Positions 2,444 to 37,009 are shown, counted from the first letter of the stretch. The stretch is DNA of 37,920 nucleotides from a virus (IMGVR_UViG_2737471826_000005), one strand, 5' to 3'. Notes: a model not told the origin generated them from the sequence alone. Numbers and translations: made by a program.

Positions 2444-2497
2444 GGGGGCAGTATTGCCCCCGTGCGGGAACGCTGATATTAAAGGCGTTTAAAAAGC

Positions 2498-9052: not shown

Positions 9053-9149
9053 GATTGTGCTCCTGTGTAAGTTCAGGGCAGTATGTCGGGAGAAGCGCGT
9101 GACGGATATTAAAGGAGATTAAGAAGAAGGGGCCGGAGCCCCTGTGATG

Positions 9150-14966: not shown

Positions 14967-15180
14967 TTTGCTGTCCCGCGTTATGTTGTCGGAGACAGTT
15001 TGTGAGAAATGCAGGCCCGGCGATTTTAATCTGCTTTAGAAAACATCAGGGGAGAAGGACAGGGAAAGCAATGCGGTGAACCGGAGGCGGTTATAAAACA
15101 GAGGCTGTAAAGCCTTTATAAAGGTAATACAGCCCCTCATTCGCTGGCAATGATAAATCACCCGCCTGAAGAGAGAAAAC

Positions 15181-20316: not shown

Positions 20317-20642
20317 TATTGACCTCCGGTATTGCGGTACTGCTGTACCACTTCCAGTTTGTTGTAGAGCGCGTCCAGTTTGGCCTCGATGACTGTCTGG
20401 CCACGGATATAATCCTCGCGACGGACATAATTCAGCGGTAAATCCGCTTTAAATCGCATAAATTCTTTTTCCAGTTCGCCCCAGTTGGAGGCGGACTGTT
20501 GCAGGGCCTGCTCAAGGGAGGCGAATCGTGCCGCCTGGCGTTCTTCTGTTTTACTGAACAACCATTTGGCGAGCCCTCCCACAAACCCCATGAAGGTGAG
20601 CAAAAAACTCACCACCGTCCAGAATTCAACCTGCAGTGTCAT
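20316..20642 (-). CDS. small membrane protein with one N-terminal TM helix (lysis-associated?)
   Basis: 108 aa, hydrophobic FWTVVSFLLTFMGFVGGLAKWLF, directly after spanins. Confidence 0.5.
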   Translation of the reverse strand: MTLQVEFWTVVSFLLTFMGFVGGLAKWLFSKTEERQAARFASLEQALQQSASNWGELEKEFMRFKADLPLNYVRREDYIRGQTVIEAKLDALYNKLEVVQQYRNTGGQ

Positions 20643-21250
20643 TTCTGTAATCCTTCCCGTTCATCCAGTAGCGCGTTTATCTGGTTTCGCCAGCGACGAC
20701 ATTGCCCTGCGTTGTCGATGATGTTGGCAAGGACGTCAAGCTGGGAGACACCCGAATTGCGTAACCGGGCGTCAGCGGTTTCAGGTTGCCCGGTCGCTGC
20801 GCCAGTGCCGGTGCCAGCGGCGGCAACTGAGTCTGAATGACCGGTGTCGACGGATGCGTTGTCGTATCCGAGTGCGGCGTTGTACTGGCGCACGAAACCG
20901 CGAGTAAACACGCACTCAATGGGATGGCTCTTACCTTTTTCATCAATCCAGCGCTGTGTGACATCGTTAATTTGCCCCTGTAGTTGTTTGTTCTGGTCCT
21001 CCAGTTGAGCAATCTGCTCAAGATAACCAGCTTCAGCCCGTTGCCCGGCGGCTACCTGCTCCTGATAACGCTCAGACCATGCGCGCAACGCCGCCACCTC
21101 ACGCCGGGCCTGTTCTGCCCGGTATCCGTCAAAATCCGCCTGCAGGCGGCTGAGCGCCGCCTGACCGTCAGCGGAGGCCCGGTCGTGGCCTGTGCTGTAT
21201 CCCAGCCACCAGATCGCCAGCAGGAAGGTGTTCAGGAGAATGGCCAGCAT
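20639..21250 (-). CDS. Rz-like inner-membrane spanin
   Basis: N-terminal TM then Gln/Ala-rich coiled-coil-like region; ATG at 21250 (track ORF extends upstream to 21394). Confidence 0.65.
   Translation of the reverse strand: MLAILLNTFLLAIWWLGYSTGHDRASADGQAALSRLQADFDGYRAEQARREVAALRAWSERYQEQVAAGQRAEAGYLEQIAQLEDQNKQLQGQINDVTQRWIDEKGKSHPIECVFTRGFVRQYNAALGYDNASVDTGHSDSVAAAGTGTGAATGQPETADARLRNSGVSQLDVLANIIDNAGQCRRWRNQINALLDEREGLQK
20677..20943 (-). CDS. Rz1-like outer-membrane lipoprotein spanin, embedded in Rz gene in +1 frame
   Basis: MKKVRAIPLSACLLAVSC lipoprotein-type signal then Pro-rich tail; wholly inside Rz-like ORF. Confidence 0.6.
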   Translation of the reverse strand: MKKVRAIPLSACLLAVSCASTTPHSDTTTHPSTPVIQTQLPPLAPALAQRPGNLKPLTPGYAIRVSPSLTSLPTSSTTQGNVVAGETR

Positions 21251-21278
21251 AATGACCCGCCACGGCAGCGACCGTAAC

Positions 21279-21896
21279 TTACGTACCCACACAGCTTGCC
21301 CCTCCCCATGAGAGATAACGCGGGGCCAGCGTGAACAGGATGCGCTGGGGATAATGACGGTTCTCCCGCCAGCTGGCAGTGCTGCGTCCGGCATTCACCG
21401 TGGCGACATGACCAAACCAGCGGGTGCTGTCCAGCCCTTTTTGTGATGCAAGCCGCCTGTCCCGCTGTACCCAGCCCAGACCACCGTTATAGCCCGACAG
21501 TGTCATGGCCATACGCTCGCAGTCACTGGCGGCGCTGACGCGCTGCCACAGCCAGCGGTCATAGCTGACCAGCGCCCGGATGGCCCATGCCGGATTAAAT
21601 GGCTCACGGCTGTTAAGCCCCGGCATCAACTGACTTATCCAGTCGGCGGTGGCGGGCATGAACTGCGCCAGTCCCTGAGCGCCAACCGGCGAGATCGCAT
21701 CAGGTCGCCAGCCGCTTTCCTGATGCAGTTGCGCAGCGAAATCAGCCACCGGCGCAGACAGTCCCCATTCAAGCCGGGCATTACGGATCACATCATCGCG
21801 ATACTGCAGCGCTGCCTGCGGAGGCTGCGCTGCGCGGGCCTGACTGAAGAAGCCGCCACACCAGAGCAACATTGCGACAAAGAATACCCGTGCCAT
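21279..21896 (-). CDS. endolysin, soluble lytic transglycosylase (SLT) domain
   Basis: ESGWRPDAISPVGAQGLAQFMPATA SLT motif; start taken at MARVFFVAMLLWCGGFFSQARA (signal/SAR-like); ORF could start up to 22016. Confidence 0.8.
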   Translation of the reverse strand: MARVFFVAMLLWCGGFFSQARAAQPPQAALQYRDDVIRNARLEWGLSAPVADFAAQLHQESGWRPDAISPVGAQGLAQFMPATADWISQLMPGLNSREPFNPAWAIRALVSYDRWLWQRVSAASDCERMAMTLSGYNGGLGWVQRDRRLASQKGLDSTRWFGHVATVNAGRSTASWRENRHYPQRILFTLAPRYLSWGGASCVGT

Positions 21897-22018
21897 ATGA
21901 ACCAGAAAGGTCCCGGCGCGGACTGACAGGCGTTCGGTTCTGATGAAGACCCTAAAGGCTTCGAAAGCCAGTTTCAGGGACATGCATACAATCCAGGTGA
22001 TCTGCGGCCAGTTCATGA

Positions 22019-22369
22019 TTAAAGCCCCATCGCAACAGCCAGACAGACCGCTGCAACAATCAGTGCACGGCGGATTAACGCAGCAGAAAACACCAGGTGA
22101 AGGCCGGTCTGTACCGGGAAACGCCCATCAGCCATCAGCCTGTCGTCATGTTTCAGGTACTGACCGGGACGGGCTTTGGGGAAGAGCGAACGGTCAAGCC
22201 AGTAACCCAGCACTGCTGCCAGCGTGATGAGTGCCAGCTTGTAGATCACAACAGGCAACTGCTGTGGCGAGACCAGAGCGATGGTGCCCAGCAACAGCAC
22301 TGAGGTCAGCAGCCAGCCGCTGAGGCGAGGTTTTTTAACAGGGGGAATGAATTTTTTCAGGTTTTTCAT
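22019..22369 (-). CDS. holin-like membrane protein (three predicted TM segments)
   Basis: First gene of leftward late operon, AAGGAGA RBS before ATG at 22369. Confidence 0.5.
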   Translation of the reverse strand: MKNLKKFIPPVKKPRLSGWLLTSVLLLGTIALVSPQQLPVVIYKLALITLAAVLGYWLDRSLFPKARPGQYLKHDDRLMADGRFPVQTGLHLVFSAALIRRALIVAAVCLAVAMGL

Positions 22370-22499
22370 GTGTGTCTCCTTGTCTGGTGGAGACAGCATC
22401 ACAAATACAGGGCGCGAAGGATTTTAAAGCGCGTTAAGAGAGCCGGGGATACGGGATGTGCAGGATAAACGATGAATTATTCACAGAGGAGAATACGAT

Positions 22500-23243
22500 A
22501 TGACGCAGACACTGAATCCGGTCATCACTGTCACCGTGTCCGGTCCTGTGGGCAGCGGTAAAAGTTACATATTGGCGCGGATAGAGGAAGTGGTGAAACA
22601 GGAATTCGGGGGCAGCGTCATTGTCGATGCTGCAGACGTAGATGATGAGCGGCGTATGAGTGGCGATGATCTGACGACCTGGCAGAAGCCACGGGGTGGC
22701 ACAGTGATCAGGCTGGAGGAATACACGGGACAGGGCCTGTTGTCATACGGCGAGGAGCGTATCTGTCGGACGAATGAGCTGCTGGATGTTATATGCCCCA
22801 CGGGCCGGCAACCCTGGATACTGCCCGATGCACTGCATGCCACCATTGCGGCACTGATGACAGTTTACGATCAGGAGCTGCTCATGAAGGAGCTACGTAA
22901 ACTCACCGGTCAGCCAACAGAATGTTTTTCTGCCCCGAAGTACGGGAAACAGGAACACATCCCGGTGAACACGCTCCCCGTTAACCAGCCTCCCCGGTTC
23001 TTCGACGAATACATTCTGACACCGGAAAATAAAGCTGAGCACGAAGAGATCAAAGCGGCGTTGTTCCGGGAAATCAGGAAGATTGCTGAAATGCAACTGG
23101 GGGGCGGGCTGGACAGAGTGATGGCGAGAGGAGAATGGGAGTCGCTGTTTGAAAGAGTTTCCCCGGAATTACTTCCCCTCGCACTGGCTATCGGGATTAT
23201 GCAGACAGCGGATAAACCTCACTTACGTTCATTAAACACGTAA
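22500..23243 (+). CDS. P-loop NTPase/kinase-like protein, unknown function
   Basis: Walker A GPVGSGKS at residues 15-22; GAGGAG RBS; no family assigned. Confidence 0.6.
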   Translation: MTQTLNPVITVTVSGPVGSGKSYILARIEEVVKQEFGGSVIVDAADVDDERRMSGDDLTTWQKPRGGTVIRLEEYTGQGLLSYGEERICRTNELLDVICPTGRQPWILPDALHATIAALMTVYDQELLMKELRKLTGQPTECFSAPKYGKQEHIPVNTLPVNQPPRFFDEYILTPENKAEHEEIKAALFREIRKIAEMQLGGGLDRVMARGEWESLFERVSPELLPLALAIGIMQTADKPHLRSLNT

Positions 23244-23623
23244 CGCATAATCCGGGATACGCATTCAGCGATGACTGCATTTTCACCGGTTTTTACTGCA
23301 TCCAGAAGTGACTCTTTAAATGGTGCGGGCCGGGGCTGCAGAAGGGTCGGCGTGGCATTGAGCAGACGGAGCGTTTTTTCCGTGAGGACGACATCAGCCG
23401 CTCCCACAGCCAGCAACTGAGAGTAACGAATATAGCTGTTATCCCGAAGCCATATCAGCGTATCAATAAAATACCGGCACTTTTTCTGGTCGTGATCAAC
23501 CTGGTCCGGGATATCGAAAAAACCAGAATAAATCAAAACCTGAGGTGCCGGATGCGTGTTCAGTAATCGGCAGAATATTTTGCCGGTGAGTGCATAAAAA
23601 TCATCATTTAAGGAGTGCATCAT
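23219..23623 (-). CDS. hypothetical protein, convergent with P-loop gene
   Basis: 134-aa ORF filling an otherwise 378-bp gap; weak G-rich RBS. Confidence 0.4.
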   Translation of the reverse strand: MMHSLNDDFYALTGKIFCRLLNTHPAPQVLIYSGFFDIPDQVDHDQKKCRYFIDTLIWLRDNSYIRYSQLLAVGAADVVLTEKTLRLLNATPTLLQPRPAPFKESLLDAVKTGENAVIAECVSRIMRYVFNERK

Positions 23624-23837
23624 GAATCCCCGATTAACGTTAACAGAACATCAGCGCCGTGCTGAAGCAGTGAACAATGTTCTGGAAGATATTATCCGGT
23701 TACATCGCGGAGAACTGAGTGTCTGTCGTGCCGCTTTTCATTTTCAGGGAATACAAAAGCAGTTTGATACTTCTGTTTTTGCAGAAGGTATTACTTATGC
23801 CCTGGACCGGATAAGGTCAGAAAATCGCCCCGGATAA
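23622..23837 (+). CDS. hypothetical small protein
   Basis: 71 aa, strong AAGGAG RBS 6 nt upstream of ATG. Confidence 0.5.
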   Translation: MNPRLTLTEHQRRAEAVNNVLEDIIRLHRGELSVCRAAFHFQGIQKQFDTSVFAEGITYALDRIRSENRPG

Positions 23838-24028
23838 TCCCTAAACCACATTAACAGAAATCCCACTATCCCTGCCGCATCATGAAAGAACGACCAGCCC
23901 GGTGCTTCGGACCCACCGGGCTGGCCATCGTCCCACAGAAGTGGCTGTGAGCCGACCGAGGTTCAGTCAGTCTCGCGAGACCAGACTAGCCTGCCATATT
24001 TTTAATAATTGTAAAAGGCTTACAGATT

Positions 24029-24793
24029 ATGAAAATGAAGACATTACCCATCGTTCCATGGATTGGTGGCAAACGTCGCCTGGCAAAACACATCCTGCCG
24101 CTGTTTCCGGCGCATGAATGTTATGTGGAGCCGTTTTGTGGGGCAGCAGCGCTCTATTTTCTTAAGACACCCGGCAAGATCGAAGTCATCAATGATATCA
24201 ACGGTGAACTGGTGAATCTGTACCGGGTGGTAAAGCATCACCTGGAAGAATTTGTCCGCCAGTTCAAATGGGCGCTGGTCAGCCGTCAGATCTACAAATG
24301 GCTGCAGATCACCCCGGAAGAAACACTGACGGATATCCAGCGTGCGGCACGGTTCTACTACCTTCAGAAGCAGGCGTTTGGCGGCAAGGTGGCAGAGCAC
24401 AGCTTCGGTACCTCCACCACATCCCCGCCACGCTTCAACCTGCTGCGTATTGAAGAAGAACTGTCAGCAGCACACCTGCGGCTTTCCAGAACAGTCATAG
24501 AACACATGGACTGGCAACAGTGCATTGAGCGTTATGATCGTCCGCACACACTGTTCTACTGCGACCCACCGTACCTGGGTACGGAAGGCTATGGTGTGGA
24601 TTTTCCTGAAGGGAACTACTCGCGGCTGGCAGAGCTGGCCCGGTGCATCAGAGGAAAAATGATAATTTCGGTGAACGATATCCCACAGATGCGCGAGGTG
24701 TTCACTGGACTGAACATACAGACAGTGAACATCAACTACAGTCTGGCGGGGAAATCTACGCCGCGCCGTGAACTGGTAATCTGCAACTTCTGA
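24029..24793 (+). CDS. DNA N6-adenine methyltransferase, Dam (D12 class)-like
   Basis: N-terminal WIGGKRRL and catalytic DPPY motifs. Confidence 0.85.
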   Translation: MKMKTLPIVPWIGGKRRLAKHILPLFPAHECYVEPFCGAAALYFLKTPGKIEVINDINGELVNLYRVVKHHLEEFVRQFKWALVSRQIYKWLQITPEETLTDIQRAARFYYLQKQAFGGKVAEHSFGTSTTSPPRFNLLRIEEELSAAHLRLSRTVIEHMDWQQCIERYDRPHTLFYCDPPYLGTEGYGVDFPEGNYSRLAELARCIRGKMIISVNDIPQMREVFTGLNIQTVNINYSLAGKSTPRRELVICNF

Positions 24794-24825
24794 AACAAAA
24801 CCGGAAAGCACAATGCTTTCCGGTA
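24790..24825. terminator. hairpin between convergent dam-like and repressor genes; U-run on minus strand
   Basis: ACCGGAAAGCA / TGCTTTCCGGT stem; TTTTGTTTCA follows on minus strand. Confidence 0.5.
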
Positions 24826-24909
24826 AACCAAACAACTTCCACTATGTCACTGGCGATGTTTTCTGAAAGCATCCAGATCAACCACCTGTCCTTTGTGTCC
24901 AGGTCAAAA

Positions 24910-25248
24910 TCAGCCTGCGAGTTTGCTTGGTTTGGGTTGAATGAAGACTTTGCCGACCTCAAGAATTGCCCTCCGTTGTTCGGGGCTCATTTCGTCGAAT
25001 GCATCCATTAACTCTTTCTTTTCTTGTGACACATAAGGTGCAACAACAGGCTGACTCCGCACCCCAGTAACTACATACAAAATATCTACACCGATTTCTG
25101 ATAGTGCAGATAACTGCACTGCAGTAGGAGAAGTGCGATCTTTTTCCCAATCAATGAAAGTTCTCTTTGCCACACCTATAGCATCAGCCAACCCTTGCTG
25201 TGTAAGAGATAGACGCTCTCTTTCTTCTTTAATACGTAACCCGATCAT
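24910..25248 (-). CDS. prophage repressor, HTH XRE/cI-like
   Basis: MIGLRIKEERERLSLTQQGLADAIGVAKRTFIDWE HTH; divergent from early operon; track ORF is an N-terminal extension. Confidence 0.7.
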   Translation of the reverse strand: MIGLRIKEERERLSLTQQGLADAIGVAKRTFIDWEKDRTSPTAVQLSALSEIGVDILYVVTGVRSQPVVAPYVSQEKKELMDAFDEMSPEQRRAILEVGKVFIQPKPSKLAG

Positions 25249-25272
25249 GTGAGTTTTTCTGCACTCTTTAAG

Positions 25273-25301
25273 TTGACTGGTGAGGTAATCTGCACCATAA
25301 T
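25273..25301 (+). promoter_or_regulatory. candidate sigma70 early promoter with overlapping repeated TCTGCAC operator-like motif
   Basis: TTGACT, 17-bp spacer, CATAAT; TCTGCAC at 25258 and 25289. Confidence 0.45.
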
Positions 25302-25348
25302 CTATCACACATAAGGCAAACATCATTGCATCAACAAAGGAGACAACG

Positions 25349-25537
25349 ATGACTGCAGAACAAGTCAAAGCTCTCTTCCGCCAGCGCGGGATCACTTTCA
25401 CCCGCTGGGCAGAAGAAAACGGCTACAACCGCAATGAGGTATACCGCGTTCTCAATGGGCAGACCAAAGCCCGTTACGGTAAATCCCATGAAATCGCCGT
25501 GAAGTTGGGGCTGAAATCAACAGCTCAGGCAGCCTGA
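25349..25537 (+). CDS. small DNA-binding protein, Ner/Cro-like
   Basis: 62 aa, first gene of rightward operon, AAAGGAG RBS. Confidence 0.55.
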   Translation: MTAEQVKALFRQRGITFTRWAEENGYNRNEVYRVLNGQTKARYGKSHEIAVKLGLKSTAQAA

Positions 25538-25583
25538 AGATTTTGAGTCTTTGTAAAAGGTTATCACATATCGCAAAAGAGGT

Positions 25584-25898
25584 ATGCAGATGAGTAAGAC
25601 GAATGTTTCAAGCTCCGGCAGTCGCATCCTCCGGGTACTCAAAGCGCTGCGCGGTCATGCCCTGAACGGTATTTCCAACGGTGAACTGGCGGCAGCACTG
25701 CACGAGTCACCGGCAAACATCAACCGGGCACTCAACACCCTCATTGAAGAAGGGTTGGCCCTGAAACTGGAAAACGGGCGTTTCGCGCCGGGCATCCAGT
25801 TACTGCAGATCGCTATGGCCCACAGTAACGAGATGGCACGTGCACAGGATCGCATTAACGAAATCAACCAACGTGTCATTTCAGGTAGTCGTTTGTAA
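25584..25898 (+). CDS. putative winged-helix DNA-binding protein
   Basis: 104 aa, ...NGELAAALHESPANINRALNTLIEEGL... HTH-like. Confidence 0.5.
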   Translation: MQMSKTNVSSSGSRILRVLKALRGHALNGISNGELAAALHESPANINRALNTLIEEGLALKLENGRFAPGIQLLQIAMAHSNEMARAQDRINEINQRVISGSRL

Positions 25899-25908
25899 GG
25901 AGTAATAA

Positions 25909-26820
25909 ATGGGACGCACCAAATCACCGATTAACACTGAACTGAACGCCGAGGTACCGCTGTCGGATGATCTCAATGTCAGTCTGAACGCCATGACACA
26001 GCATCGTATGGAGATCATGCAGCAGTTTGGCGATGGTCAGCCCTATGAGCGTGATCGCATAGTTCATGAGGCTCGGTTTTATATGGCACAGAGCGCTGAG
26101 GCCATGCTGGAAGCAGGTAAACGACTTATTATTCTCAAAGAAAATGAACCTCACGGGGACTTTGTTGGAATTGTAGAAGAACAACTTGGTCTGCATGTGC
26201 GCGCAGCACAACGAATGATGAAAGCATCTTTGAAATACCTTTCACCAAAACTAGAGCCAAAAGCGACAACGTTGTCGCTTTTAGGTAAGGCAAAATTATT
26301 TGAACTTGTTGCTGAAGATGACGACGACCTTGCTGAACTGGCCGACGGTGGCACAGTTGCCGGACTGACGCTTGACGATGTTGATCGCATGTCAGTACGT
26401 GAATTGCGTCAGGCCCTGCGCGAAGCGCGCGAAACCAACGCAGCACAACAGCGCGTACTCGCCGACAAAAATGAAAAAATAGACTCACTCTCCACCAGAC
26501 TGGAGAAGAAATCCCGTATTCAGCCACCTGAGCCTGATGAAGAGGTGAAGAAACTGCGGGCAGAAGTGACCGCGTTAGCGGTTGAGGCGGAATCTGCCAT
26601 CGCCGTTCGACTGTCCAGCGCTTTTGAGACGCTGTGCGCATATTGTGCTGAAAACATGATTGATACCCCCAGAGACTTCATGGCAGGCCTGGTCTGTCAA
26701 CTGGAAAGCACAGCGCGTAGCCTGCGCTCCACATTTGACCTGCCGGACGAGCCAACAGGCAATGCAGCGCCTTCATGGCTGACTGAGCCGACGCCACAGA
26801 TTAACGGGCTGGAGGCATAA
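25909..26820 (+). CDS. hypothetical protein (acidic, coiled-coil-rich)
   Basis: 303-aa ORF immediately upstream of transposase. Confidence 0.5.
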   Translation: MGRTKSPINTELNAEVPLSDDLNVSLNAMTQHRMEIMQQFGDGQPYERDRIVHEARFYMAQSAEAMLEAGKRLIILKENEPHGDFVGIVEEQLGLHVRAAQRMMKASLKYLSPKLEPKATTLSLLGKAKLFELVAEDDDDLAELADGGTVAGLTLDDVDRMSVRELRQALREARETNAAQQRVLADKNEKIDSLSTRLEKKSRIQPPEPDEEVKKLRAEVTALAVEAESAIAVRLSSAFETLCAYCAENMIDTPRDFMAGLVCQLESTARSLRSTFDLPDEPTGNAAPSWLTEPTPQINGLEA

Positions 26821-26823
26821 CCA

Positions 26824-28593
26824 ATGAATGCTGCCCTGACTGAACGACTGGTTTATGTCGCCCGCGCGGCACGTGACGCGGGGCATGGTAAACGCGGCGC
26901 AGTATACGACGCTGCCTGTGCTGAACTTGGCATGTCCCGCGCCACTCTGCTGCGCAGGCTGAAGGAGGTATCTGTGACTGATAAACGCAAAAAACGCGCC
27001 GATGCCGGGCGCAGCGCCCTGACCCGCGACGAAGCCGCGCTGATATCTGCCACACTGCGTGAGGCCACCCGCAAGAACGGTAAGCGTCTCTATTCCATCG
27101 CGGATGCAGTGGAAACCCTGCGGGCTAACGGCTTTATATCCGCAGGCAGAACAGATGAAACCACCGGTGAGTTTTTCCCGTTGTCCGAAGATGCCATCAG
27201 CCGAGCCCTGCGTAACTATGGCCTGCACCCGGAACAACTGGATGCCCCTGCGCCGCATACCGAAGTGGCCAGTCTGCATCCCAATCATGTCTGGCAGATT
27301 GACGCCTCACTCTGCACGCTTTACTACCTGAGCAATGGACATAAAGGGCTGCAGGTGATGGACAGCGCGAAGTTCTACAAGAACAAGCCCGCTAACCTTG
27401 CCCGTATCGCCAGTGACCGCGTGTGGAGTTACGAGATTACCGACCATGCCAGCGGCTGGATTTACGTTGAGTATGTGACGGGCGCGGAATCAGGTGAGAA
27501 CCTGTGTTCTGTGCTTATCAACGCCATGCAGGAGCGTGGCGGCGCAGACGTGCTGCACGGTGTGCCGAAAATACTCTATCTCGACCCCGGCTCGGCAAAC
27601 ACCGCGGGTATGACGAAAAACATGTGCCGCTCACTGGGCATCGACCTGATAGCGCACAAGCCGCATAACGCCCGCGCCACCGGACAGGTGGAAAAGGCGC
27701 GGGACATTATCGAACGCAAGCTGGAGCCGGGTCTGAAGTTCCGGCCGGTTCACAGTCTGGAAGAACTCAACGCGCTGGCCGCGAAATGGCGCAGCCACTT
27801 TAACGCCACGGCTGTTCACAGCCGCCACGGTAAAACCCGCACGGATATCTGGCTGAAGATTACTGCTGAGCAGCTGAAAAAAGCGCCTTCCGTTGAGGTA
27901 TGTCGTGAACTGGCTGTGGCGGCACCAGAACTCCGCAAAGTCACGCCAAAACTTCGTGTCTCGTTCCGGGGCACTGAATTTGACGTATCAACGGTACCGG
28001 GCGTACTGGTTGGTGAAAAACTGATGATTACCCGTAACCCGTGGCGCAGCGATGTGGCACAGGTGGTTCTGACCGGTGAGGACGGCCACGAGACGTTCTT
28101 CCTGGTCGAAGAGGTCAGAAAGAACGAGTTTGGCTTTGCTGAAGGCGCGGCGGTATTTGGCGAAAGTTACAAAGCCCTGCCGGAAACCCCGGCGCAGATG
28201 GCGGCAAAAGAAACCGAAGCGCTGGTCACCGGTACAGACAACGCCGCAGATGCAGCTGCCGCACGCAAGGCGAAGGCGCTGCCGTTCGGCGGGCGGCTTG
28301 ACCCGTATAAACATATCGACGACACCACACTTCCGGCCTATATGCCGAAGCGTGGTCAGGCCTCTGACGTACGCGGGCCGCGCACTGAACAACGTCCCAT
28401 GACTTATGTGGAGGCCGCGAAAGCCCTGCGCGATAAGTTCAGCGCCAACGGCTTTACCTGGACGCCGGAACATTACCGCCAGTTAACGGCACAGTATCCG
28501 GACGGCGTACCGGAAGCCGCACTGGATGAAGTCATGGCCACGCTGACCACGCCGGCCCGCAGCAGCGTTATCAGTATTGTTAACGGCAACTGA
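26824..28593 (+). CDS. DDE transposase, Mu A-like
   Basis: 589 aa; HPNHVWQIDASL and YLDPGS integrase-core-like motifs; followed by B-like ATPase. Confidence 0.85.
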   Translation: MNAALTERLVYVARAARDAGHGKRGAVYDAACAELGMSRATLLRRLKEVSVTDKRKKRADAGRSALTRDEAALISATLREATRKNGKRLYSIADAVETLRANGFISAGRTDETTGEFFPLSEDAISRALRNYGLHPEQLDAPAPHTEVASLHPNHVWQIDASLCTLYYLSNGHKGLQVMDSAKFYKNKPANLARIASDRVWSYEITDHASGWIYVEYVTGAESGENLCSVLINAMQERGGADVLHGVPKILYLDPGSANTAGMTKNMCRSLGIDLIAHKPHNARATGQVEKARDIIERKLEPGLKFRPVHSLEELNALAAKWRSHFNATAVHSRHGKTRTDIWLKITAEQLKKAPSVEVCRELAVAAPELRKVTPKLRVSFRGTEFDVSTVPGVLVGEKLMITRNPWRSDVAQVVLTGEDGHETFFLVEEVRKNEFGFAEGAAVFGESYKALPETPAQMAAKETEALVTGTDNAADAAAARKAKALPFGGRLDPYKHIDDTTLPAYMPKRGQASDVRGPRTEQRPMTYVEAAKALRDKFSANGFTWTPEHYRQLTAQYPDGVPEAALDEVMATLTTPARSSVISIVNGN

Positions 28594-28603
28594 GGAGGGA
28601 AAC

Positions 28604-29770
28604 ATGCTGGTACTGAAGCAGCAACTGAAAGAAGCCCGTATTCCACAGGCGGTGGTGGCGAGAGCTGTCGATGTTTCTGAGGCCACGCTGGCCCAGATTG
28701 TGAATCATAACGCGTGGCCCCGCACCAGCCCCGGAGAAGTGCGCCGGCGTCTTGCGTCCTGGCTGGAAAGTCAGGGGATTGATACAACGAAGAGTTTTGA
28801 TGCTGTACAGGGCGCGGCCACGCCCCGTACAGCGGGTACCACAGATAAAACGAGCCTCAGTGAGGAAGAGAATATGTTACTCAAAAAACAGGTGTTATTT
28901 CCAGCAACCAAAAAAGCGTTTGGTCTTTTCCGTGACCCGTTCGCCGACGAAGCCATGCAGGGTTCTGATGATGTGTTCACCACCCCGGATATTCGCTACG
29001 TGCGTGAGGCGTTGTACCAGACAGCCCGTCATGGTGGGTTTATGGCCGTCATCGGTGAGTCCGGTGCGGGTAAATCCACGCTGCGCCGCGACCTGACTGA
29101 ACGTATCAACCGCGAGAATGCGCCGGTAATTGTTATCGAGCCATACATCATCGCTATGGAAGACAACGATGTGAAAGGGAAAACCCTGAAGGCAGCAGCG
29201 ATTGCCGAAGCCATTATCAGTACCATCGCACCACTGGAAAGCATCAGACGCAGTCAGGACGCCCGCTTTCGCCAGTTGCATCGCGTCCTGAAAGACAGCA
29301 GCCAGGCGGGGTTCAGCCACGTTCTGGTGATTGAGGAGGCCCACAGTCTGCCCATTCCGACACTGAAACACCTCAAACGCTTTTTTGAGCTGGAGTCCGG
29401 TTTCAAAAAACTGCTGTCCATCGTGCTGATTGGCCAGCCGGAACTGGCGACAAAACTGTCTGAACGCAATATGGAAGTCCGTGAAGTCGTTCAGCGCTGT
29501 GAGGTGGTCGAACTTCTGCCTCTGGACAATAACCTTGAAGAGTTTCTGACGTTCAAACTGCAACGGGCCGGTAAACAACTGACGGACATTATGGACGCCA
29601 GCGCAGTGGATGCCATACGTGCCCGCCTGAGCAATCCGGGAAGTCATCGTAAAAATATGGTCAGCCTGCTGTATCCGCTGGCCGTCAGTAACCTGGTAAT
29701 AGCCGCCATGAATCTGGCCGCTGAAATCGGGGTTCCACAGGTCAACGCTGACGTTGTCAAAGGGGTTTAA
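28604..29770 (+). CDS. transposition ATPase, Mu B-like
   Basis: Walker A GESGAGKST, Walker B-like HVLVIEEAH; GAGGAG RBS before ATG at 28604. Confidence 0.85.
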   Translation: MLVLKQQLKEARIPQAVVARAVDVSEATLAQIVNHNAWPRTSPGEVRRRLASWLESQGIDTTKSFDAVQGAATPRTAGTTDKTSLSEEENMLLKKQVLFPATKKAFGLFRDPFADEAMQGSDDVFTTPDIRYVREALYQTARHGGFMAVIGESGAGKSTLRRDLTERINRENAPVIVIEPYIIAMEDNDVKGKTLKAAAIAEAIISTIAPLESIRRSQDARFRQLHRVLKDSSQAGFSHVLVIEEAHSLPIPTLKHLKRFFELESGFKKLLSIVLIGQPELATKLSERNMEVREVVQRCEVVELLPLDNNLEEFLTFKLQRAGKQLTDIMDASAVDAIRARLSNPGSHRKNMVSLLYPLAVSNLVIAAMNLAAEIGVPQVNADVVKGV

Positions 29771-29772
29771 TA

Positions 29773-30042
29773 ATGAAATCCACCACAGGTATCAACCAGC
29801 AAATCAGCAAAGTGCAGTCAGCCATTATGGCGCTTAAGGCGACGAACACGGATGTACAAAGCATCACCATCAGGGGTAACAAACCTGTCATCCGCGTTTC
29901 CCGGAGTGCGCATTGCATGCGCATGCTTGAGCAGGGAAAGGCCTGTTATCTGTATACCGGTCATGACCACAGGGGACATTTCCGTCAGGGCGTTTTCGAA
30001 CTGCACGGCTGTCGCGTCGTGTGGCCGGAATCTTTGTGGTAA
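29773..30042 (+). CDS. hypothetical protein
   Basis: 89 aa, coupled to B stop. Confidence 0.5.
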   Translation: MKSTTGINQQISKVQSAIMALKATNTDVQSITIRGNKPVIRVSRSAHCMRMLEQGKACYLYTGHDHRGHFRQGVFELHGCRVVWPESLW

Positions 30043-30069
30043 TCAGCACAACAGGAGGAGTCATAAAAT

Positions 30070-30600
30070 ATGGCAAAAAGTACAAAAGGGGCAAAACGTA
30101 TCAAAGCCGCAGCAGCACTCTGGGTGCCGGGGACACGCGAAGAGGTCATTGAGGGAATCAGACTGCTTGGTGACGCGCAACGTGAACTGGTCAGGGCTGA
30201 AACAGAAATGAATGACACCATTGGCGACATCACCGCACGTTATGCCCCGCTCACCGAGAGCCTGAAAAAACGCATGGCCGAACTGCAGTCCGGTATTCAG
30301 ACATGGTGTGAGGCACACCGTGATGAACTGACCGGCAACGGGAAGGTGAAGTTCGCTAACCTCACCACCGGCGAGGTGCAGTGGCGAAACCGTCCGCCGT
30401 CAGTCAGTATCCGTGGGGCGGATAATGTTATTGAATTACTGAGACGTCTGGGGCTTGAGCGCTTTATCCGTGTAAAGGAGGAAATAAATAAAGACGCCAT
30501 CCTGAATGAAAAGGACGCCGTGAAAAATATTCCCGGTATTACCATAAAAAGTGATATTGAGGATTTTTCAATAATTCCTTTTGAGCAGAATGTGCAGTAA
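30070..30600 (+). CDS. gam: host-nuclease inhibitor Gam-like (Mu Gam family)
   Basis: 176 aa, coiled-coil N-terminal half, position after B; GGAGG RBS. Confidence 0.75.
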   Translation: MAKSTKGAKRIKAAAALWVPGTREEVIEGIRLLGDAQRELVRAETEMNDTIGDITARYAPLTESLKKRMAELQSGIQTWCEAHRDELTGNGKVKFANLTTGEVQWRNRPPSVSIRGADNVIELLRRLGLERFIRVKEEINKDAILNEKDAVKNIPGITIKSDIEDFSIIPFEQNVQ

Positions 30601-30696
30601 AAACAGCATATAAGCTATTTAAAACAGCCTTTTCTTTTTTATTCCGGCATCAGCGCCGTGGGCTTCTGCACGCCGGAAACAGAGGAGAATTAAATC

Positions 30697-30891
30697 ATGA
30701 TATTTAAATGTATTCAGTGCGAGAGGGATATAACAGCCCTGCGTTTTCACAGCGCCATCGCCGTGATGTCCGGTAAGTACCACGTACCTGCAGTACGCGT
30801 CACCCTGGTCTGTCCGTACTGCAGTCAGCATTTTTCGGCAGACGTGCCCGTCATGGAATTCTCCCGCCCTGACAGGGAGGACTCGCAATGA
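30697..30891 (+). CDS. small zinc-ribbon protein (CxxC...CxxC)
   Basis: 64 aa, Cys at 5, 8, 39, 42. Confidence 0.5.
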   Translation: MIFKCIQCERDITALRFHSAIAVMSGKYHVPAVRVTLVCPYCSQHFSADVPVMEFSRPDREDSQ

Positions 30892-31160
30892 TTACCCCAC
30901 AGGAAGCACGACAGCGCACCCGAACCCTTGTTGAACACTATGTCAACGAGTGTGAATGCCGCGACCTCACCGATGTGAAGCACGTCCTGACGGCGCTAAT
31001 CAGCATGACCGCTCAGGCCATTGTGGCGACCAACGGAAAGGCGGCTGCCCTGCAGGTACTGGTGAACACACTCACCCACACGGCAGAGCACGATGTGCCG
31101 TACCGGATGGAAACCACTGCAGAAGGCGGCCTGAACATCACCGTCGACCGGAAACACTGA
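30888..31160 (+). CDS. hypothetical protein
   Basis: 90 aa, ATGA overlap with upstream gene. Confidence 0.5.
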   Translation: MITPQEARQRTRTLVEHYVNECECRDLTDVKHVLTALISMTAQAIVATNGKAAALQVLVNTLTHTAEHDVPYRMETTAEGGLNITVDRKH

Positions 31161-31169
31161 GGGCGCGGC

Positions 31170-31475
31170 ATGACACGGAACACCGAACTCACCCGCACCG
31201 CCCTCTACCGTCTGGCCCTGCAGCGTTTCGGGCCGGACGCACAGGCCCTGAAACTGACAGAAGAGGCCGCTGAACTGGCGGCCAGTGCCGCCCGCAACCT
31301 GAACGGACAGGGCAGCGAAAGTGACCTCGCGGCAGAGCTGGCAGACGTGGAAATCATGACAGAGCAGCTGCGCCTTCAGGGAATGGACCGGCTGATTGAC
31401 TTCCACAAACAGAAAAAACTGGAACGCCTTGCCGCACGGCTGGGCGTCATGTACACCGGAGATACTGAACAATGA
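31170..31475 (+). CDS. MazG-like nucleotide pyrophosphohydrolase (small all-alpha type)
   Basis: 101 aa with LKLTEEAAELAA...AAELADVEIM acidic helix pattern. Confidence 0.6.
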   Translation: MTRNTELTRTALYRLALQRFGPDAQALKLTEEAAELAASAARNLNGQGSESDLAAELADVEIMTEQLRLQGMDRLIDFHKQKKLERLAARLGVMYTGDTEQ

Positions 31476-32155
31476 CAGACCAGGATAAACACATTGAGAA
31501 ACTGAAAAAGTTGCTGGCGCTGGCCGCATCCGGCAACCCTCACGAGGCCGCTCTGGCACTGCGCCGTGCCCGTAAACTGATGGATGTTCACGGCATCACA
31601 CATTCCGACATCGCCATGAGTGATATTGATGAAACCATCAGTCACTACTGGCCGACAGGCAGCCTCCGTCCACCGCGCTACATGCTGGGCCTGATGAACA
31701 TCATCCGCGAGGCATTTGGTGTTAACTCCATCATTCACCCCGGCACATATCCGGGTGTGGGGTTCTACGGCAACCGGGAACGGGCTGCACTGGCTGCGTA
31801 CACCTGGGAAGTGCTGGCCCGCCAGCTGAAAAAGGCGCGTCAGCAATATATCAGCGCACAGAACAAAAGAATAAAAACTGCCACCCGTACCAGCCGTGGT
31901 GACCAGTTTGCTGAAGGCTGGGTGCTGGCCGTTATCAGTGAAATACAGTCCTTCGCCCTGACCGATGACGAACGTGAACTGATGCAGCAGTGGCTGGAAC
32001 ATAAATACCCGCAGACGCAAACCACCAGGGCGCGTAAACCGGGAAGAAGCCGCAATGGCGACGCCTCGCGCTATGCGGGGTTTCTTGAAGGGCAGAACGT
32101 CAGACTGCACCGCCCGGTCAGTGGGCAGGAACAACAGAAACTGGAGGCCAGATGA
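31472..32155 (+). CDS. conserved phage protein (DUF2786-like N-terminus)
   Basis: IEKLKKLLALAASGNPHEAALALRRARKLM motif. Confidence 0.55.
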   Translation: MTDQDKHIEKLKKLLALAASGNPHEAALALRRARKLMDVHGITHSDIAMSDIDETISHYWPTGSLRPPRYMLGLMNIIREAFGVNSIIHPGTYPGVGFYGNRERAALAAYTWEVLARQLKKARQQYISAQNKRIKTATRTSRGDQFAEGWVLAVISEIQSFALTDDERELMQQWLEHKYPQTQTTRARKPGRSRNGDASRYAGFLEGQNVRLHRPVSGQEQQKLEAR

Positions 32156-32382
32156 TTACGCTATCAGGTAAAAGCCGGAAATTAAAAGCCTGCCGAATAT
32201 CTGCCAGATACCTTTTTGCCCGCGCCTTTTTTAAGAACGTCAGGCCGGGGATCACAATTGGTGTTATTGCCGGACGCGAACAGGTTGAAAAATACATGTC
32301 AGGTGCATGGTGGAATAACGACCCTGTCATTGCTGCCCGTAATATTCATATCAGTTGGGGGGATATTCAGAATGACGGCTGA
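32152..32382 (+). CDS. hypothetical protein
   Basis: 76-aa ORF, coupled. Confidence 0.4.
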   Translation: MITLSGKSRKLKACRISARYLFARAFFKNVRPGITIGVIAGREQVEKYMSGAWWNNDPVIAARNIHISWGDIQNDG

Positions 32383-32587
32383 ATCTGTTGTATGTGCCCT
32401 GTTCTGGTATTGTTTTGTCGGTTGGTGTACTGCTGAACTGCACCGCCGTTCAGGGTTTTATTCACGTTACAGTGGTGCTGGCTACTGGATTAGCTGGTCG
32501 GTGATGTTCCTGTGCTGGCCTGTGGCGCTTCCTTTATATGTCGATTATATCGGTGGCGCAGGTAAAAGGAGCAACGATGATGACTAA
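32372..32587 (+). CDS. small hydrophobic/membrane protein
   Basis: 71 aa from internal ATG of track ORF 32216..32587; AATGACGGCTGA overlap with upstream stop. Confidence 0.4.
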   Translation: MTAESVVCALFWYCFVGWCTAELHRRSGFYSRYSGAGYWISWSVMFLCWPVALPLYVDYIGGAGKRSNDDD

Positions 32588-33029
32588 ACAACGTCTTATC
32601 CAGCTCATTCATATTGCCCGTAATGAACTGGGTATGGATGAAGACACCTACCGCCAGATGTTACAGGGGCTGACCGGTAAAGCCTCAACCAAAGGAATGG
32701 ATACCACACAACTAAACTGCGTGCTGGAATCCATGAAAAGGAAAGGCTTTCGCGTTAAGCCTGCCGGAAAAGCCAGCTCCGGTTTACCGCTGGATAACCA
32801 TCCGCAGTCCAGGAAAATCCGTGCGCTATGGCTTGAAATGGCTGCTGCCGGCATTGTTCGTGACCGTTCAGAAAATGCATTAGCGCGGTGGATCAAGCGG
32901 GAAACGGGCATCAGCGCCCTGCGCTGGCTCAGTACTGAACAGGCAAGCAGTGTTATTGAGAAACTGAAGAAGTGGCAGCGCAGAGCTGCGGGAGTCAAAC
33001 ATGAGCGACCTGAATCAGTTTCGAAGTAA
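32577..33029 (+). CDS. GemA-like protein (Mu gp16 family)
   Basis: Position immediately upstream of mor; RLIQLIHIARNELGMDEDTYRQ motif. Confidence 0.65.
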   Translation: MMTKQRLIQLIHIARNELGMDEDTYRQMLQGLTGKASTKGMDTTQLNCVLESMKRKGFRVKPAGKASSGLPLDNHPQSRKIRALWLEMAAAGIVRDRSENALARWIKRETGISALRWLSTEQASSVIEKLKKWQRRAAGVKHERPESVSK

Positions 33030-33399
33030 AGGGCCGGAACTCCTGGTGGAGCTGGCACAGCATACCTCTGAGACCGTTCGCGAGATTATTGATATTGAGC
33101 CCGCAATTGCCGACCAGATTGGTCAGGCCGTCGCGAACCGAATGATGCAGGTCTGGGGCGGGCAAAACGTTTATTTCCCGATGGGCATGGTATGGAAGGT
33201 CAGTCAGCGCGACCGGGAAATCTTCAGGGAGTTTAACGGACGCAACCACCACGAACTGGCCCGCAAGTTTGGTGTTTCGCTTCAGTGGGTCTACAGCGTG
33301 GTTAAGCGGGTCAGAAAAGAAGAACTGGATCGGATGCAGGGCAGGTTGTTTGATGAAGATCTGCCAGAGGAGACGAAAGACGTTAACAAATCCAGATAA
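33001..33399 (+). CDS. mor: Mor/C-family transcription activator
   Basis: C-terminal FNGRNHHELARKFGVSLQWVYSVVKRVRK matches Mu Mor NDFNGRNVSELTTRYGVTFNTVYKAIRRMRR. Confidence 0.85.
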   Translation: MSDLNQFRSKGPELLVELAQHTSETVREIIDIEPAIADQIGQAVANRMMQVWGGQNVYFPMGMVWKVSQRDREIFREFNGRNHHELARKFGVSLQWVYSVVKRVRKEELDRMQGRLFDEDLPEETKDVNKSR

Positions 33400-33442
33400 T
33401 TCCTGCTTGTTAAAGTCCTTTCAAAAATCTCCTTATTGTATA

Positions 33443-33477
33443 AAAGCACGGTAGACCCCTTACCGTGCTTTTTTTAT
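33443..33477 (+). terminator. rho-independent terminator after mor
   Basis: AAAGCACGGTA / TACCGTGCTTT stem, 7-nt loop, T7 run. Confidence 0.8.
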
Positions 33478-33513: not shown

Positions 33514-33948
33514 ATGTTTGACGTTTCGTTGTTAAATCTGCCATGGGCAACACTGGTGACCCTGACCAGTGGCTATATTGGGTATTTTATTGCGAATGTG
33601 GGACTGAAGGATCACCACAAGCCCATTGAGGTGACTTTTTCTTCGCTGATTTTTGGCCTGACAGCAATGATGGCTTACCAGGCTGTTATGTGGGCAGGTC
33701 TGAATGCCTGGCTGGCAACACCACCAGCACTTCTGTGTGCCGTTACATGCGGTGCGTGGTGGCGCAGGTACGGTCGCAAATGGATGTACAGATTACTGTG
33801 GAATAATGATATTTCATGGTCTGACGATACCAGCTCAGCATGGCAGGCAATGTTTGATCAAACAGGCTTCAGCGTTACCGAGGTCAGAGTGATTCTTCGC
33901 GATGGTTCCGGTATGATGTCACGGCTGCCAGGGAACTTTGAAGAGTAG
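33514..33948 (+). CDS. three-TM membrane protein; reading frame continues past an in-frame TAG to 34146
   Basis: GGAG RBS before ATG 33514; three hydrophobic segments; TAG at 33946-33948 followed by 66 further in-frame sense codons. Confidence 0.5.
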   Translation: MFDVSLLNLPWATLVTLTSGYIGYFIANVGLKDHHKPIEVTFSSLIFGLTAMMAYQAVMWAGLNAWLATPPALLCAVTCGAWWRRYGRKWMYRLLWNNDISWSDDTSSAWQAMFDQTGFSVTEVRVILRDGSGMMSRLPGNFEE

Positions 33949-34496
33949 CCTAACGGTCCGTTTACCCTGGGGAATAAAGGCGATATGGTTCTTTACGTCA
34001 CGCACAGCAGCCCTTCAGGCAGTAACGAATGGGAAGAGTATAAAGGCGTGGTTGATAAGTACTGGGGAGCTCTGGCAACCTATATTCCAGCAGATCAGAT
34101 TGCCAGAGTGGAGATCAGGCGCGTTCGTGCAACGAACGATGAATGATGTTTATTTTTTCCCTGGGGCAGGGGCTGCCGGCATAGTGGTTTTATTGGCAGA
34201 GGAAGACGATTCTCCTTTTCTACCGGAATCGCGCTCGAACGTCACGATGTGCTTGCTTTTGGGCTTTTCTGAGTAATCCAGGCTATCATGCTTATTGTTT
34301 TGAGTAGTCATTGGAATCATCCTTTTTGTTGCGGGTCATGTTTCAGCAAACTCGATTCTAAGTTGCCAGGAAGGATGATTTCAATGCCCGACTTATCTAT
34401 CGTATAGCGGAAAAGAATTTCAGTTCTGTTCACCAGAACCCATGTTAACCCACTCCAATTCGTTATTTATCTCACGGATCCCCCTTCATTTATCTC

Positions 34497-35264
34497 ATGT
34501 CTGATCATCTGGGCTTTCGTTCGTCACTGCTGCAAGCGAGCTTTAACTACGAAAGGATGCAGGCGGGCGGTTTTACCTGGGCGATGTTGCCGATCCTGAA
34601 AAAGATTTATAAGGACGACAAACCGGGCCTAAGCGCGGCGATGAAAGATAACCTCGAATTTATTAATACCCACCCGAATCTGGTCGGATTCCTGATGGGG
34701 TTATTAATTTCGATGGAAGAAAAAGGAGAAAACCGCGACACCATTAAAGGCCTCAAAGTGGCACTGTTTGGCCCAATCGCCGGGATTGGCGATGCGATTT
34801 TCTGGTTTACCTTATTGCCGATTATGGCGGGAATTTGCTCATCATTTGCCAGCCAGGGAAACTTGCTGGGGCCGATTCTATTTTTCGCCGTTTACCTGCT
34901 TATCTTCTTCCTGCGCGTCGGCTGGACCCACGTCGGTTATTCAGTCGGCGTGAAGGCGATCGATAAAGTGCGAGAGAACTCGCAGATGATTGCTCGTTCG
35001 GCAACCATCCTCGGGATCACGGTAATCGGCGGGCTGATCGCTTCGTATGTGCATATTAACGTGGTGACATCGTTTGCCATCGACAGTACCCACAGCGTCG
35101 CGCTGCAGCAGGATTTCTTCGATAAAGTCTTCCCGAATATTTTACCGATGGCCTACACCCTGCTGATGTATTACTTCCTGCGGGTGAAAAAAGCGCATCC
35201 GGTGCTGTTAATCGGCGTGACGTTTGTTCTTTCTATTGTTTGTTCTGCATTCGGCATTTTGTAA
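34497..35264 (+). CDS. agaD: PTS N-acetylgalactosamine-specific IID component, 5'-truncated/altered by prophage insertion
   Basis: Body of protein matches AgaD as I recall it, but N-terminus MSDHLGFRSS replaces native MGSEISKKDITRLGFRSS. Confidence 0.8.
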   Translation: MSDHLGFRSSLLQASFNYERMQAGGFTWAMLPILKKIYKDDKPGLSAAMKDNLEFINTHPNLVGFLMGLLISMEEKGENRDTIKGLKVALFGPIAGIGDAIFWFTLLPIMAGICSSFASQGNLLGPILFFAVYLLIFFLRVGWTHVGYSVGVKAIDKVRENSQMIARSATILGITVIGGLIASYVHINVVTSFAIDSTHSVALQQDFFDKVFPNILPMAYTLLMYYFLRVKKAHPVLLIGVTFVLSIVCSAFGIL

Positions 35265-36032
35265 ATGGAACGAGGCACCGCGTCTGGCGGTGCCTCTTTA
35301 CTTAAGGAATTTCATCCTGTGCAAACCCTTCAACAAGTTGAAAACTATACGGCGTTAAGTGAACGTGCCAGCGAATATTTATTGGCCGTGATCCGTAGCA
35401 AACCGGATGCCGTGATTTGCCTGGCGACCGGAGCCACGCCATTACTGACGTATCATTATCTGGTAGAAAAAATCCACCAGCAGCAGGTTGATGTCAGCCA
35501 GCTCACCTTCCTGAAGCTCGACGAATGGGTGGATCTGCCATTAACGATGCCTGGCACCTGCGAAACTTTCCTACAACAGCATATCGTGCAGCCGCTGGGG
35601 CTGCGTGAAGACCAGCTCATCAGCTTTCGCTCCGAAGAGATAAATGAGACAGAGTGCGAACGGGTAACGAACCTGATTGCGCGCAAAGGCGGTCTGGATT
35701 TATGCGTTCTCGGATTGGGGAAAAACGGTCATCTTGGGCTGAACGAACCGGGAGAAAGCCTGCAACCGGCCTGCCATATCAGTCAACTTGATGCCAGAAC
35801 ACAGCAACATGAGATGTTAAAAGCCGCGGGCCGTCCCGTGACTCGTGGGATCACCTTAGGCCTGAAGGATATTCTCAATGCCCGCGAAGTTTTGTTACTG
35901 GTGACTGGCGAAGGAAAGCAGGATGCGACAGAACGTTTTCTCACGGCTAAAGTCTCTACCGCTACCCCGGCTTCATTTTTATGGCTGCATAACTATTTCA
36001 CATGCATGATTGATGAGATGTGTCGTCGTTAA
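35265..36032 (+). CDS. agaI: putative galactosamine-6-phosphate deaminase/isomerase
   Basis: 255-aa NagB-like protein in aga locus. Confidence 0.8.
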   Translation: MERGTASGGASLLKEFHPVQTLQQVENYTALSERASEYLLAVIRSKPDAVICLATGATPLLTYHYLVEKIHQQQVDVSQLTFLKLDEWVDLPLTMPGTCETFLQQHIVQPLGLREDQLISFRSEEINETECERVTNLIARKGGLDLCVLGLGKNGHLGLNEPGESLQPACHISQLDARTQQHEMLKAAGRPVTRGITLGLKDILNAREVLLLVTGEGKQDATERFLTAKVSTATPASFLWLHNYFTCMIDEMCRR

Positions 36033-36041
36033 CTCGCCTGG

Positions 36042-36080
36042 TACAGGCGTTGCAACGCTATTCCTGCTGCAACGCCTGTA
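36042..36080. terminator. palindromic hairpin between convergent agaI and rsmI
   Basis: ACAGGCGTTGC ... GCAACGCCTGT arms with internal palindrome GCGTTGCAACGC. Confidence 0.4.
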
Positions 36081-36081
36081 A

Positions 36082-36945: not shown

Positions 36946-37009
36946 TGTGTCGTCCGTATTGCCGATTTAATATTGAGCATTGCGTAAAAAAAATATCACT
37001 GGATACATT

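Follow-up and report, generated by a model that had tools for sequence, protein, structure and literature searches.

How can a transposable phage turn on its late genes when its only activator gene of the Mor/C family stands last in the early operon, far from the late promoters and on the other strand? The question is raised by a DNA of 37,920 nt, read along one strand, from the virus IMGVR_UViG_2737471826_000005 (the whole stretch is referred to here as the window), in which early genes run rightward and late genes leftward from a common central region. The window is very probably most of a BcepMu-type transposable prophage inserted in the agaD gene of Escherichia coli, with the divergent layout that is normal for this family and with a cascade that we propose to run through Mor.

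The divergent layout reported in the initial annotation was upheld. Twenty-eight consecutive genes occupy the minus strand from 431 to 22369, as judged from the open reading frame (ORF) layout, scans of Pfam, PHROG and NCBIfam profiles and tblastn synteny; the early operon occupies the plus strand from 25349 to 33399 and ends with mor; and the cumulative GC skew changes direction at ~22 kb. The contrast drawn with collinear Mu, whose matches all fall on one strand, and the suggested likeness to BcepMu-type phages (BcepMu record; tblastn synteny; PMC2771037) were equally well founded. We place the start of the holin gene at 22369 (ATG, with a GGAGA ribosome-binding site), and the divergence gap is therefore 22370-22499; the mechanical ORF start at 22402 was rejected in favour of the register given by the PHROG profile and by the Prokaryotic Genome Annotation Pipeline (PGAP). 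Using the window Mor, Mu Mor, Mu C and BcepMu gp1 as tblastn queries, we found one Mor/C locus per BcepMu-type element and two in Mu. The window's sole homologue, 56% identical to BcepMu gp1, starts at 33001 on the opposite strand, 10.6 kb from the first late promoter and close to the ~11 kb first estimated. To regard this as a mechanistic puzzle was to overstate the case, because Mor is a diffusible activator, for which the distance and strand of its gene are irrelevant.

Relatives and termini identify the element. By megablast, Escherichia phage PhiKM (PQ738613), classed in GenBank as Bcepmuvirus, is 95-99% identical to the window at the nucleotide level across both halves, and a Klebsiella KP12_2 contig and Phi06_2974 B are ~85-87% identical. 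Megablast of the whole window gave no nucleotide-level match to BcepMu, which falls short of the genus level for a Bcepmuvirus in the strict sense; the proteins share 30-76% identity with those of BcepMu (tblastn). The 1.1 kb beyond mor is element DNA in 118 genomes, with the match always ending at 34507 beside differing host genes, so that the prophage end lies there and not, as first annotated, at mor. The left end falls outside the window, whose first position is within a tail-fibre gene. A complete copy in AR_0081 (L005), located in yjjI, has TGAT...ATCA termini (TG...CA type), a 6-bp target duplication (ACGCAC) and GATAAATG repeats, two per end and 23 nt apart; the same repeats occur at the window's right end. 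Given these matching terminal repeats and the duplication in AR_0081, and the constant end with its differing flanks, both arms constitute one mobile element. Many insertion sites, TG...CA ends, terminal repeats and a short duplication indicate insertion by transposition, the window itself holding the right end only. Host sequence resumes with agaD at 34508, followed by agaI, rsmI and lpoA. The 5' end of agaD is broken by the prophage and now reads MSDHLGFRSS... (34508-37920); the uninterrupted site is present in E. coli strain C4, where it is 100% identical, and none of 5426 complete E. coli genomes has this prophage at the same position in agaD.

A Mor/C-dependent late promoter had been suggested for 22403-22499, and a candidate Mor-type dyad lies within that interval, at 22423-22438. 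It belongs to a set. The motif YTAA-N6-TTAAWATC occurs exactly four times in the 37.9 kb, even when one mismatch is allowed, always on the late strand and in an intergenic gap: upstream of the holin gene (22420-22437), the protease gene (15022-15039), the gpE-like gene (9105-9122) and the gpW gene (2475-2492). Each of these candidate promoters, designated P_L1 to P_L4 (Table 1), consists of a 16-bp dyad (nnTAA-N6-TTAAn), a 19-nt spacer and a -10-like hexamer (nAnnCT); the best -35 match is 1-3 of 6, and a sigma-70 scan did not call them. P_L1 has a TG before its -10 (extended -10), no -35 hexamer and a predicted start at ~22388, and P_L2 occupies the position of PI in Mu. The starts predicted for P_L2, P_L3 and P_L4 are ~14990, ~9073 and ~2443, respectively. 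Terminator-like hairpins lie directly upstream of P_L2 (15102-15115) and P_L3 (9128-9143), and the late arm is therefore probably made up of four transcription units. At P_L4 (2443-2455) the -10 ends 6 nt before the gpW ATG, placing the predicted start at or beside the start codon, and the mRNA is possibly leaderless.

We compared the homologous gaps in KP12, BcepMu and 80 IMG/VR relatives. Across this sample the dyad is kept together with its 3' flank and the hexamer, and the 19-nt spacer varies in sequence but not in length. Over 94 distinct variants, the dyad flanks and hexamer hold 1.3-1.85 bits per position, compared with 0-0.5 bits in the spacer, and A2/T6 stand at a fixed offset in 91. 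A position weight matrix (PWM) built from the relatives alone scores the four window sites at 40-49 bits and the fifth match at 13.3, with maxima of -6 to 3.9 in 20 shuffled sequences; for P_L1, which has 38 distinct conserved variants, the score is 44.4 bits against no more than 3.9 in shuffles. BcepMu has dyad-type sites at the homologous late-operon starts, and the copies in PhiKM and E. coli have the same four late-promoter sites together with the same site upstream of Dam that is described below.

What may act on these sites is suggested by Mu. There, Mor binds two 5-bp inverted repeats around a G/C-rich 6-bp spacer, centred at -43.5 and replacing the -35 element (PMC4390567), and C uses a 16-bp dyad at -43.5 of late promoters without -35 hexamers (PMC2582627). 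In the Mu record (L003) the Mor site of Pm is AGTAA-AGCCGG-TTAAT at 9173-9188, a numbering that we checked against the published -57G and -54A, and its centre lies 30 nt from the -10, TATCCT. The window's four sites have Pm-type TAA/TTA half-sites, a 5-N6-5 dyad and the same 30-nt distance from centre to -10, their absolute position at -43.5 depending on the predicted start sites. The C dyad of Mu Plys could not be placed unambiguously against its -10 from the raw sequence, and for this we used the published statement (PMC2582627). Mor is present in every relative examined. A two-tier cascade in which one Mor would act in trans on all late promoters appears the most likely arrangement.

Two weaker sites of the same type point rightward. 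Read in reverse, the junction dyad faces a CAGGAT hexamer at canonical spacing, 33 nt before the gene for a 247-amino-acid (aa) protein (P_R1), and CAGGAT or CAGAAT is kept at fixed spacing in lineages with differing spacers. P_dam, the fifth-best match in the window, lies above all 20 shuffles; its spacing is also canonical, and an 11-bp leader hairpin follows (23894-23924). Many enterobacterial relatives have Dam right next to the holin and divergent from it, with the holin dyad read in reverse for Dam; the spacer varies there, CATGAT is conserved and the leader sequence is the one that precedes Dam in the window. In the window lineage a three-gene module lies between holin and Dam. In the Burkholderia group, including BcepMu, the holin dyad has no rightward -10 on its reverse side. 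Together these data suggest, with moderate confidence only, that the junction dyad works both ways and that the accessory genes running rightward belong to the late class. The fullest form of the proposal, namely a two-tier cascade run by a single Mor through six Pm-like promoters, in which the 22423-22438 dyad fires the holin leftward and the accessory genes rightward and 22500-24793, Dam included, are Mor-controlled late genes, is put forward tentatively, the balance being slightly against it.

The upper tier of the cascade would be set by the interval between the repressor and the early operon (25249-25348). It contains the sole strong sigma-70-like promoter of the central region, Pe, and, together with the GTGAG-N6-CTGCAC repeats, Pe likely forms the early promoter and operator set; the repeats are probably operators of the HTH_3 repressor, a protein of the helix-turn-helix (HTH) class. 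In the lysogen, this Cro/CI-type repressor would occupy the repeats, which overlap the promoter at 25273-25301. Upon induction, Pe would give one 8-kb rightward transcript across the genes found there, from the gp16-like HTH gene to mor, with a predicted end at the 33442-33472 hairpin. Mor would then diffuse and bind the conserved 16-bp dyads ~43 bp upstream of the four promoters lacking a -35, activating four leftward units: lysis and packaging; head and proximal tail; tape measure and baseplate hub; and baseplate and fibre. The dyad at the 22.4-kb junction would probably also drive a rightward accessory promoter, and Dam would have its own, weaker site. Such a cascade would have two tiers, early and late, compared with the three of Mu (early, Mor and C).

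Several observations count against this proposal. Both the late promoters and their assignment to Mor are computational predictions. Because the four window gaps themselves served to define the motif, its count in the window is partly circular; as controls, the PWM was trained on relatives only and the motif is absent elsewhere. The relatives share ancestry, and variant counts are thus not independent events; the BcepMu site at the gpE position is weak; and P_R1 scores only -0.9 bits in the window and rests on one conserved hexamer. The window Mor is about equally distant from Mu Mor (31% identity) and Mu C (35%). Finally, when the Mu genome is scanned with the relatives' PWM, Pm comes only seventh (-0.4 bits), and we therefore claim likeness for the half-sites and the geometry, not for the whole site or for general detection of Mor sites. 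That weak score on Pm, and the further DNA-binding proteins encoded in the early operon, would also fit dyad promoters that are real but run by another factor, such as the IclR-like HTH protein (25584-25898), GemA or a host protein, with Mor acting elsewhere or redundantly. We consider this unlikely, as the architecture, with its 5-N6-5 dyad, G/C-rich spacer, missing -35 hexamer and 30 nt between centre and -10, is that known from Mor and C (PMC4390567, PMC2582627), the half-sites match the Mu Mor site, and Mor is the only member of its family in the element and is conserved among the relatives.

The plus-strand genes at 22500-24793 could instead be read as part of the early operon, served by an early promoter in the 22403-22499 gap, since they lie on the same strand and begin at the divergence from the late genes. 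However, the 24800-24824 hairpin and the convergent repressor gene intervene, the only strong sigma-70-like promoter is Pe, and the gap has a Mor-type dyad but no sigma-70 promoter. Moreover, the Mor-type site of Dam is conserved in relatives, and the equivalent space in BcepMu holds genes co-oriented with the late genes. This makes an early assignment decidedly improbable. Another alternative, named in the initial annotation as the result that would overturn the layout, is that the early and late halves are two elements or an assembly chimera joined at ~22.4 kb. It could draw on the absence of the junction genes 22500-23837 from BcepMu and KP12 and on the variability of the region between repressor and holin among relatives, but it did not survive comparison with other genomes. 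Of 5426 complete E. coli genomes, 638 have the junction (20500-27500), located at many chromosomal sites; coverage reaches 80% or more in 497 of them, and in at least 25 the region is contiguous and 100% identical. It also runs uninterrupted through PhiKM, the KP12_2 contig and Phi06_2974 B. The two-arm order is shared by BcepMu, and the AR_0081 terminal repeats and target duplication bound both arms. The likelihood of a chimera is practically negligible. A single element with a late arm probably driven by Mor is the preferred reading.

Within that element, the early operon is rightward with mor last, as first annotated, but its start is 25349 and not 22403. The first gene encodes a small HTH protein of the BcepMu gp16 family and is Ner-like by position only. 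The transposase has, among Pfam domains, only rve, with weak IS481/IS21 similarity, and neither it nor the transposition ATPase gave a tblastn match to MuA or MuB of Mu at E<=1e-3; the proteins annotated as A and B are thus, by these predictions, functional analogues of MuA and MuB, not homologues. Gam is close to Mu Gam yet has no BcepMu counterpart, a sign of mosaicism. The membrane-protein gene beyond mor (phrog_12870) carries a TGG-to-TAG change at 33946-33948 that truncates it at codon 145 here; it is intact in AR_0081. For the repressor, the alignment to BcepMu gp17 favours a start at 25248 over the longer forms from 25401 (mechanical ORF) and 25368 (PGAP), which were discarded.

The block at 22500-24793 is separate from the early operon because the 24800-24824 hairpin and the minus-strand repressor gene lie between them. 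Its antisense 134-aa gene shares 25 nt with the 3' end of the 247-aa gene and 2 nt with the beginning of the 71-aa gene, so that separate promoters would have no space. When the accessory proteins were run through PADLOC, only the methyltransferase was recognised, apart from a valueless mad8 match (E=0.005) for the 247-aa protein. Over the whole window, Rfam searches (gathering threshold) and tRNA scans found nothing.

In the late arm, the tape-measure gene contains a 261-nt unit three times in tandem (5948-6743; 96% matches), and these copies make it longer than that of KP12. TerS (19460-20008) is 59% identical to its PhiKM and KP12 counterparts, compared with >90% for its neighbours, a further sign of mosaicism. 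At the end of the late arm, E. coli and Klebsiella relatives have a DNA invertase together with a segment of the tail fibre that appears to be invertible (L005 770-3020; L004 24-1116), a region outside the window, to the left of position 1. A 16-nt element, TTTATAAAGGCTTTAC, lies in the gap that separates the G-like gene from the protease gene (15102-15133; core 15107-15122, minus strand), midway along the genome. It is unique in the window and nearly unchanged from E. coli to Burkholderia (BcepMu, L002 ~18735-18765), while the flanking intergenic DNA diverges. In Mu the same gene gap has the strong gyrase site, and the element may have a role beyond that of a terminator.

Table 1. Genes and candidate regulatory features of the window (positions counted from its first nucleotide).
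Feature	Position	Strand	Details
P_L1, candidate promoter of holin to G-like gene operon	22392-22439	-	dyad 22423-22438 CTTAA-CGCGCT-TTAAA; -10 GATGCT 22395-22400
P_L2, candidate promoter upstream of protease/scaffold gene	14994-15041	-	dyad 15025-15040 TCTAA-AGCAGA-TTAAA; -10 CAAACT 14997-15002
P_L3, candidate promoter upstream of gpE-like tail chaperone and tape measure	9077-9124	-	dyad 9108-9123 CTTAA-TCTCCT-TTAAT; -10 CATACT 9080-9085
P_L4, candidate promoter upstream of gpW baseplate gene	2447-2494	-	dyad 2478-2493 TTTAA-ACGCCT-TTAAT; -10 AATACT 2450-2455
P_R1, candidate, reverse reading of junction dyad 22423-22438	22422-22469	+	-10-like CAGGAT 22461-22466; predicted start ~22473
P_dam, candidate, weaker Mor-type site	23839-23886	+	dyad CCTAA-ACCACA-TTAAC 23840-23855; -10 CATCAT 23878-23883; predicted start ~23890
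Late block, first genes	up to 22369	-	holin, SLT endolysin, Rz-like spanin, two small membrane/lipoprotein genes, TerS, TerL, portal
Late block, head genes	within 431-22369	-	Mu F- and G-like, protease/scaffold, major capsid, head-tail connectors
Late block, tail genes	down to 431	-	P2-like sheath, tube, chaperone, tape measure, gpU/X/D, baseplate V/W/J/I
247-aa protein	22500-23243	+	P-loop GPVGSGKS; phrog_3787; not in BcepMu or KP12
134-aa protein	23219-23623	-	phrog_2266; PGAP-annotated in L005
71-aa protein	23622-23837	+	phrog_4490; PHROG match
Dam-like D12-class DNA adenine methyltransferase	24029-24793	+	PF02086 E=6e-29; PADLOC MTase_II E=6e-113
11-bp terminator hairpin between convergent Dam and repressor	24800-24824	.	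T-run on minus strand
HTH_3 (Cro/CI-type) repressor	24910-25248	-	BcepMu gp17 homologue; start is M52 of long ORF
GTGAG-N6-CTGCAC repeats (two), probable operators	25249-25264, 25280-25295		31 nt apart; second inside Pe spacer
Pe, candidate early promoter	25273-25301	+	TTGACT-17-CATAAT; predicted start ~25308
BcepMu gp16-family small HTH, first early gene	25349-25537	+	TIGR04111 97.4 bits vs cutoff 34; phrog_925
IclR-like winged HTH	25584-25898	+	like gp12; family scans, tblastn
DUF3102 protein	25909-26820	+	like gp10; family scans, tblastn
DDE transposase, rve core	26824-28593	+	68% identical to BcepMu gp09 (Tn552/IS1604-type)
AAA_22/ExeA-like transposition ATPase	28604-29770	+	59% identical to BcepMu gp08
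Gam host-nuclease inhibitor	30070-30600	+	PF07352 8e-41; 62% identical to Mu Gam
NTP-pyrophosphohydrolase-like protein	31170-31475	+	PHROG match only; none in Pfam/NCBIfam
DUF2786/DUF7168 protein	31472-32155	+	family scans
GemA	32538-33029	+	PF06252 E=1e-40
Mor/C-family activator	33001-33399	+	PF08765 E=1e-43
Intrinsic-terminator-like hairpin	33442-33472	+	13-bp stem and T-run, 43 nt past mor; predicted early transcript end
Membrane-protein gene	33514-34146	+	phrog_12870; 210 aa in relatives
Prophage right end, ...TGATCA	34465-34507	+	two candidate transposase sites, ATTTATCTCA repeats 23 nt apart

Roughly one complete E. coli genome in ten carries the same prophage. For this very common, little-studied family the present analysis offers a regulatory map comprising a candidate early promoter, operator-like repeats, the predicted end of the early transcript and four late plus two weaker rightward candidate promoters. 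The divergent layout is already known from the published BcepMu-type architecture. A full-text literature search on late promoters of BcepMu returned nothing relevant. If anything here is new, it is the promoter map and the possible bidirectional Mor site. If correct, the map would describe a Mu-like regulatory logic with one activator instead of two, and a Mor dyad that divergent promoters can share; Mor-controlled Dam would parallel mom, the C-dependent modification gene of Mu.

The closest described architecture is that of BcepMu, in which two clusters occupy opposite strands and meet at the lysogeny control region, which the lysis cassette follows, and in which the transposase is of the Tn552-IS1604 type (PMC2771037). 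In its record (NC_005882), genes 1-16 occupy one strand, with Mor (gp1) at the genome end, GemA (gp2), the ATPase (gp8), the transposase (gp9) and an HTH protein (gp16), and the other strand carries the repressor (gp17), the lysis cassette and head and tail genes (21-52). By tblastn, 27 of the 28 window late genes are collinear with BcepMu genes 21-51, and the early genes are collinear, on the opposite strand, with gp16, gp12, gp10, gp9, gp8, gp2 and gp1. The window thus shows the BcepMu-type combination of a two-cluster layout, an rve transposase and a lysis cassette (holin, SLT endolysin, Rz/Rz1) leading to a Mu-like head and a P2-like tail. Unlike BcepMu, it has Gam, DUF2786 and other early genes, and Dam plus three further genes, mostly on the early strand, fill its interval from repressor to holin, where BcepMu has gp18-20 on the late strand. 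BcepMu was described without a fibre inversion system (PMC2771037), whereas the E. coli relatives carry an invertase and an apparently invertible fibre segment.

PhiKM and the E. coli copies (AR_0081, DA33135) are 95-99% identical to the window in nucleotide sequence over nearly the whole element and have the same gene order. PhiKM differs in its immunity repressor (33% identity), in TerS (59%) and in having other DNA past mor, its record being a permuted partial assembly. From Mu (NC_000929) the distance is greater. The genes with Mu matches are TerL, portal, F, G, a baseplate protein, Gam, GemA and Mor, all on the Mu plus strand, and in both phages the first two late units start at the lysis and protease genes (Plys and PI in Mu). 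Mu, a transposable myovirus like the present element, is however collinear: its early, middle and late genes share one strand, the late genes, beginning with lys, are immediately preceded by mor, Pm and C, and there are two activators and three phases, so that the window does not have the Muvirus organisation; nor is the Mu tail module P2-like. The target duplication of Mu is 5 bp, compared with 6 bp in AR_0081. Burkholderia phage KS10 likewise has an early region inverted relative to Mu and a single Mor, but its head module is split between the two arms, whereas in the window a single arm carries every late gene.

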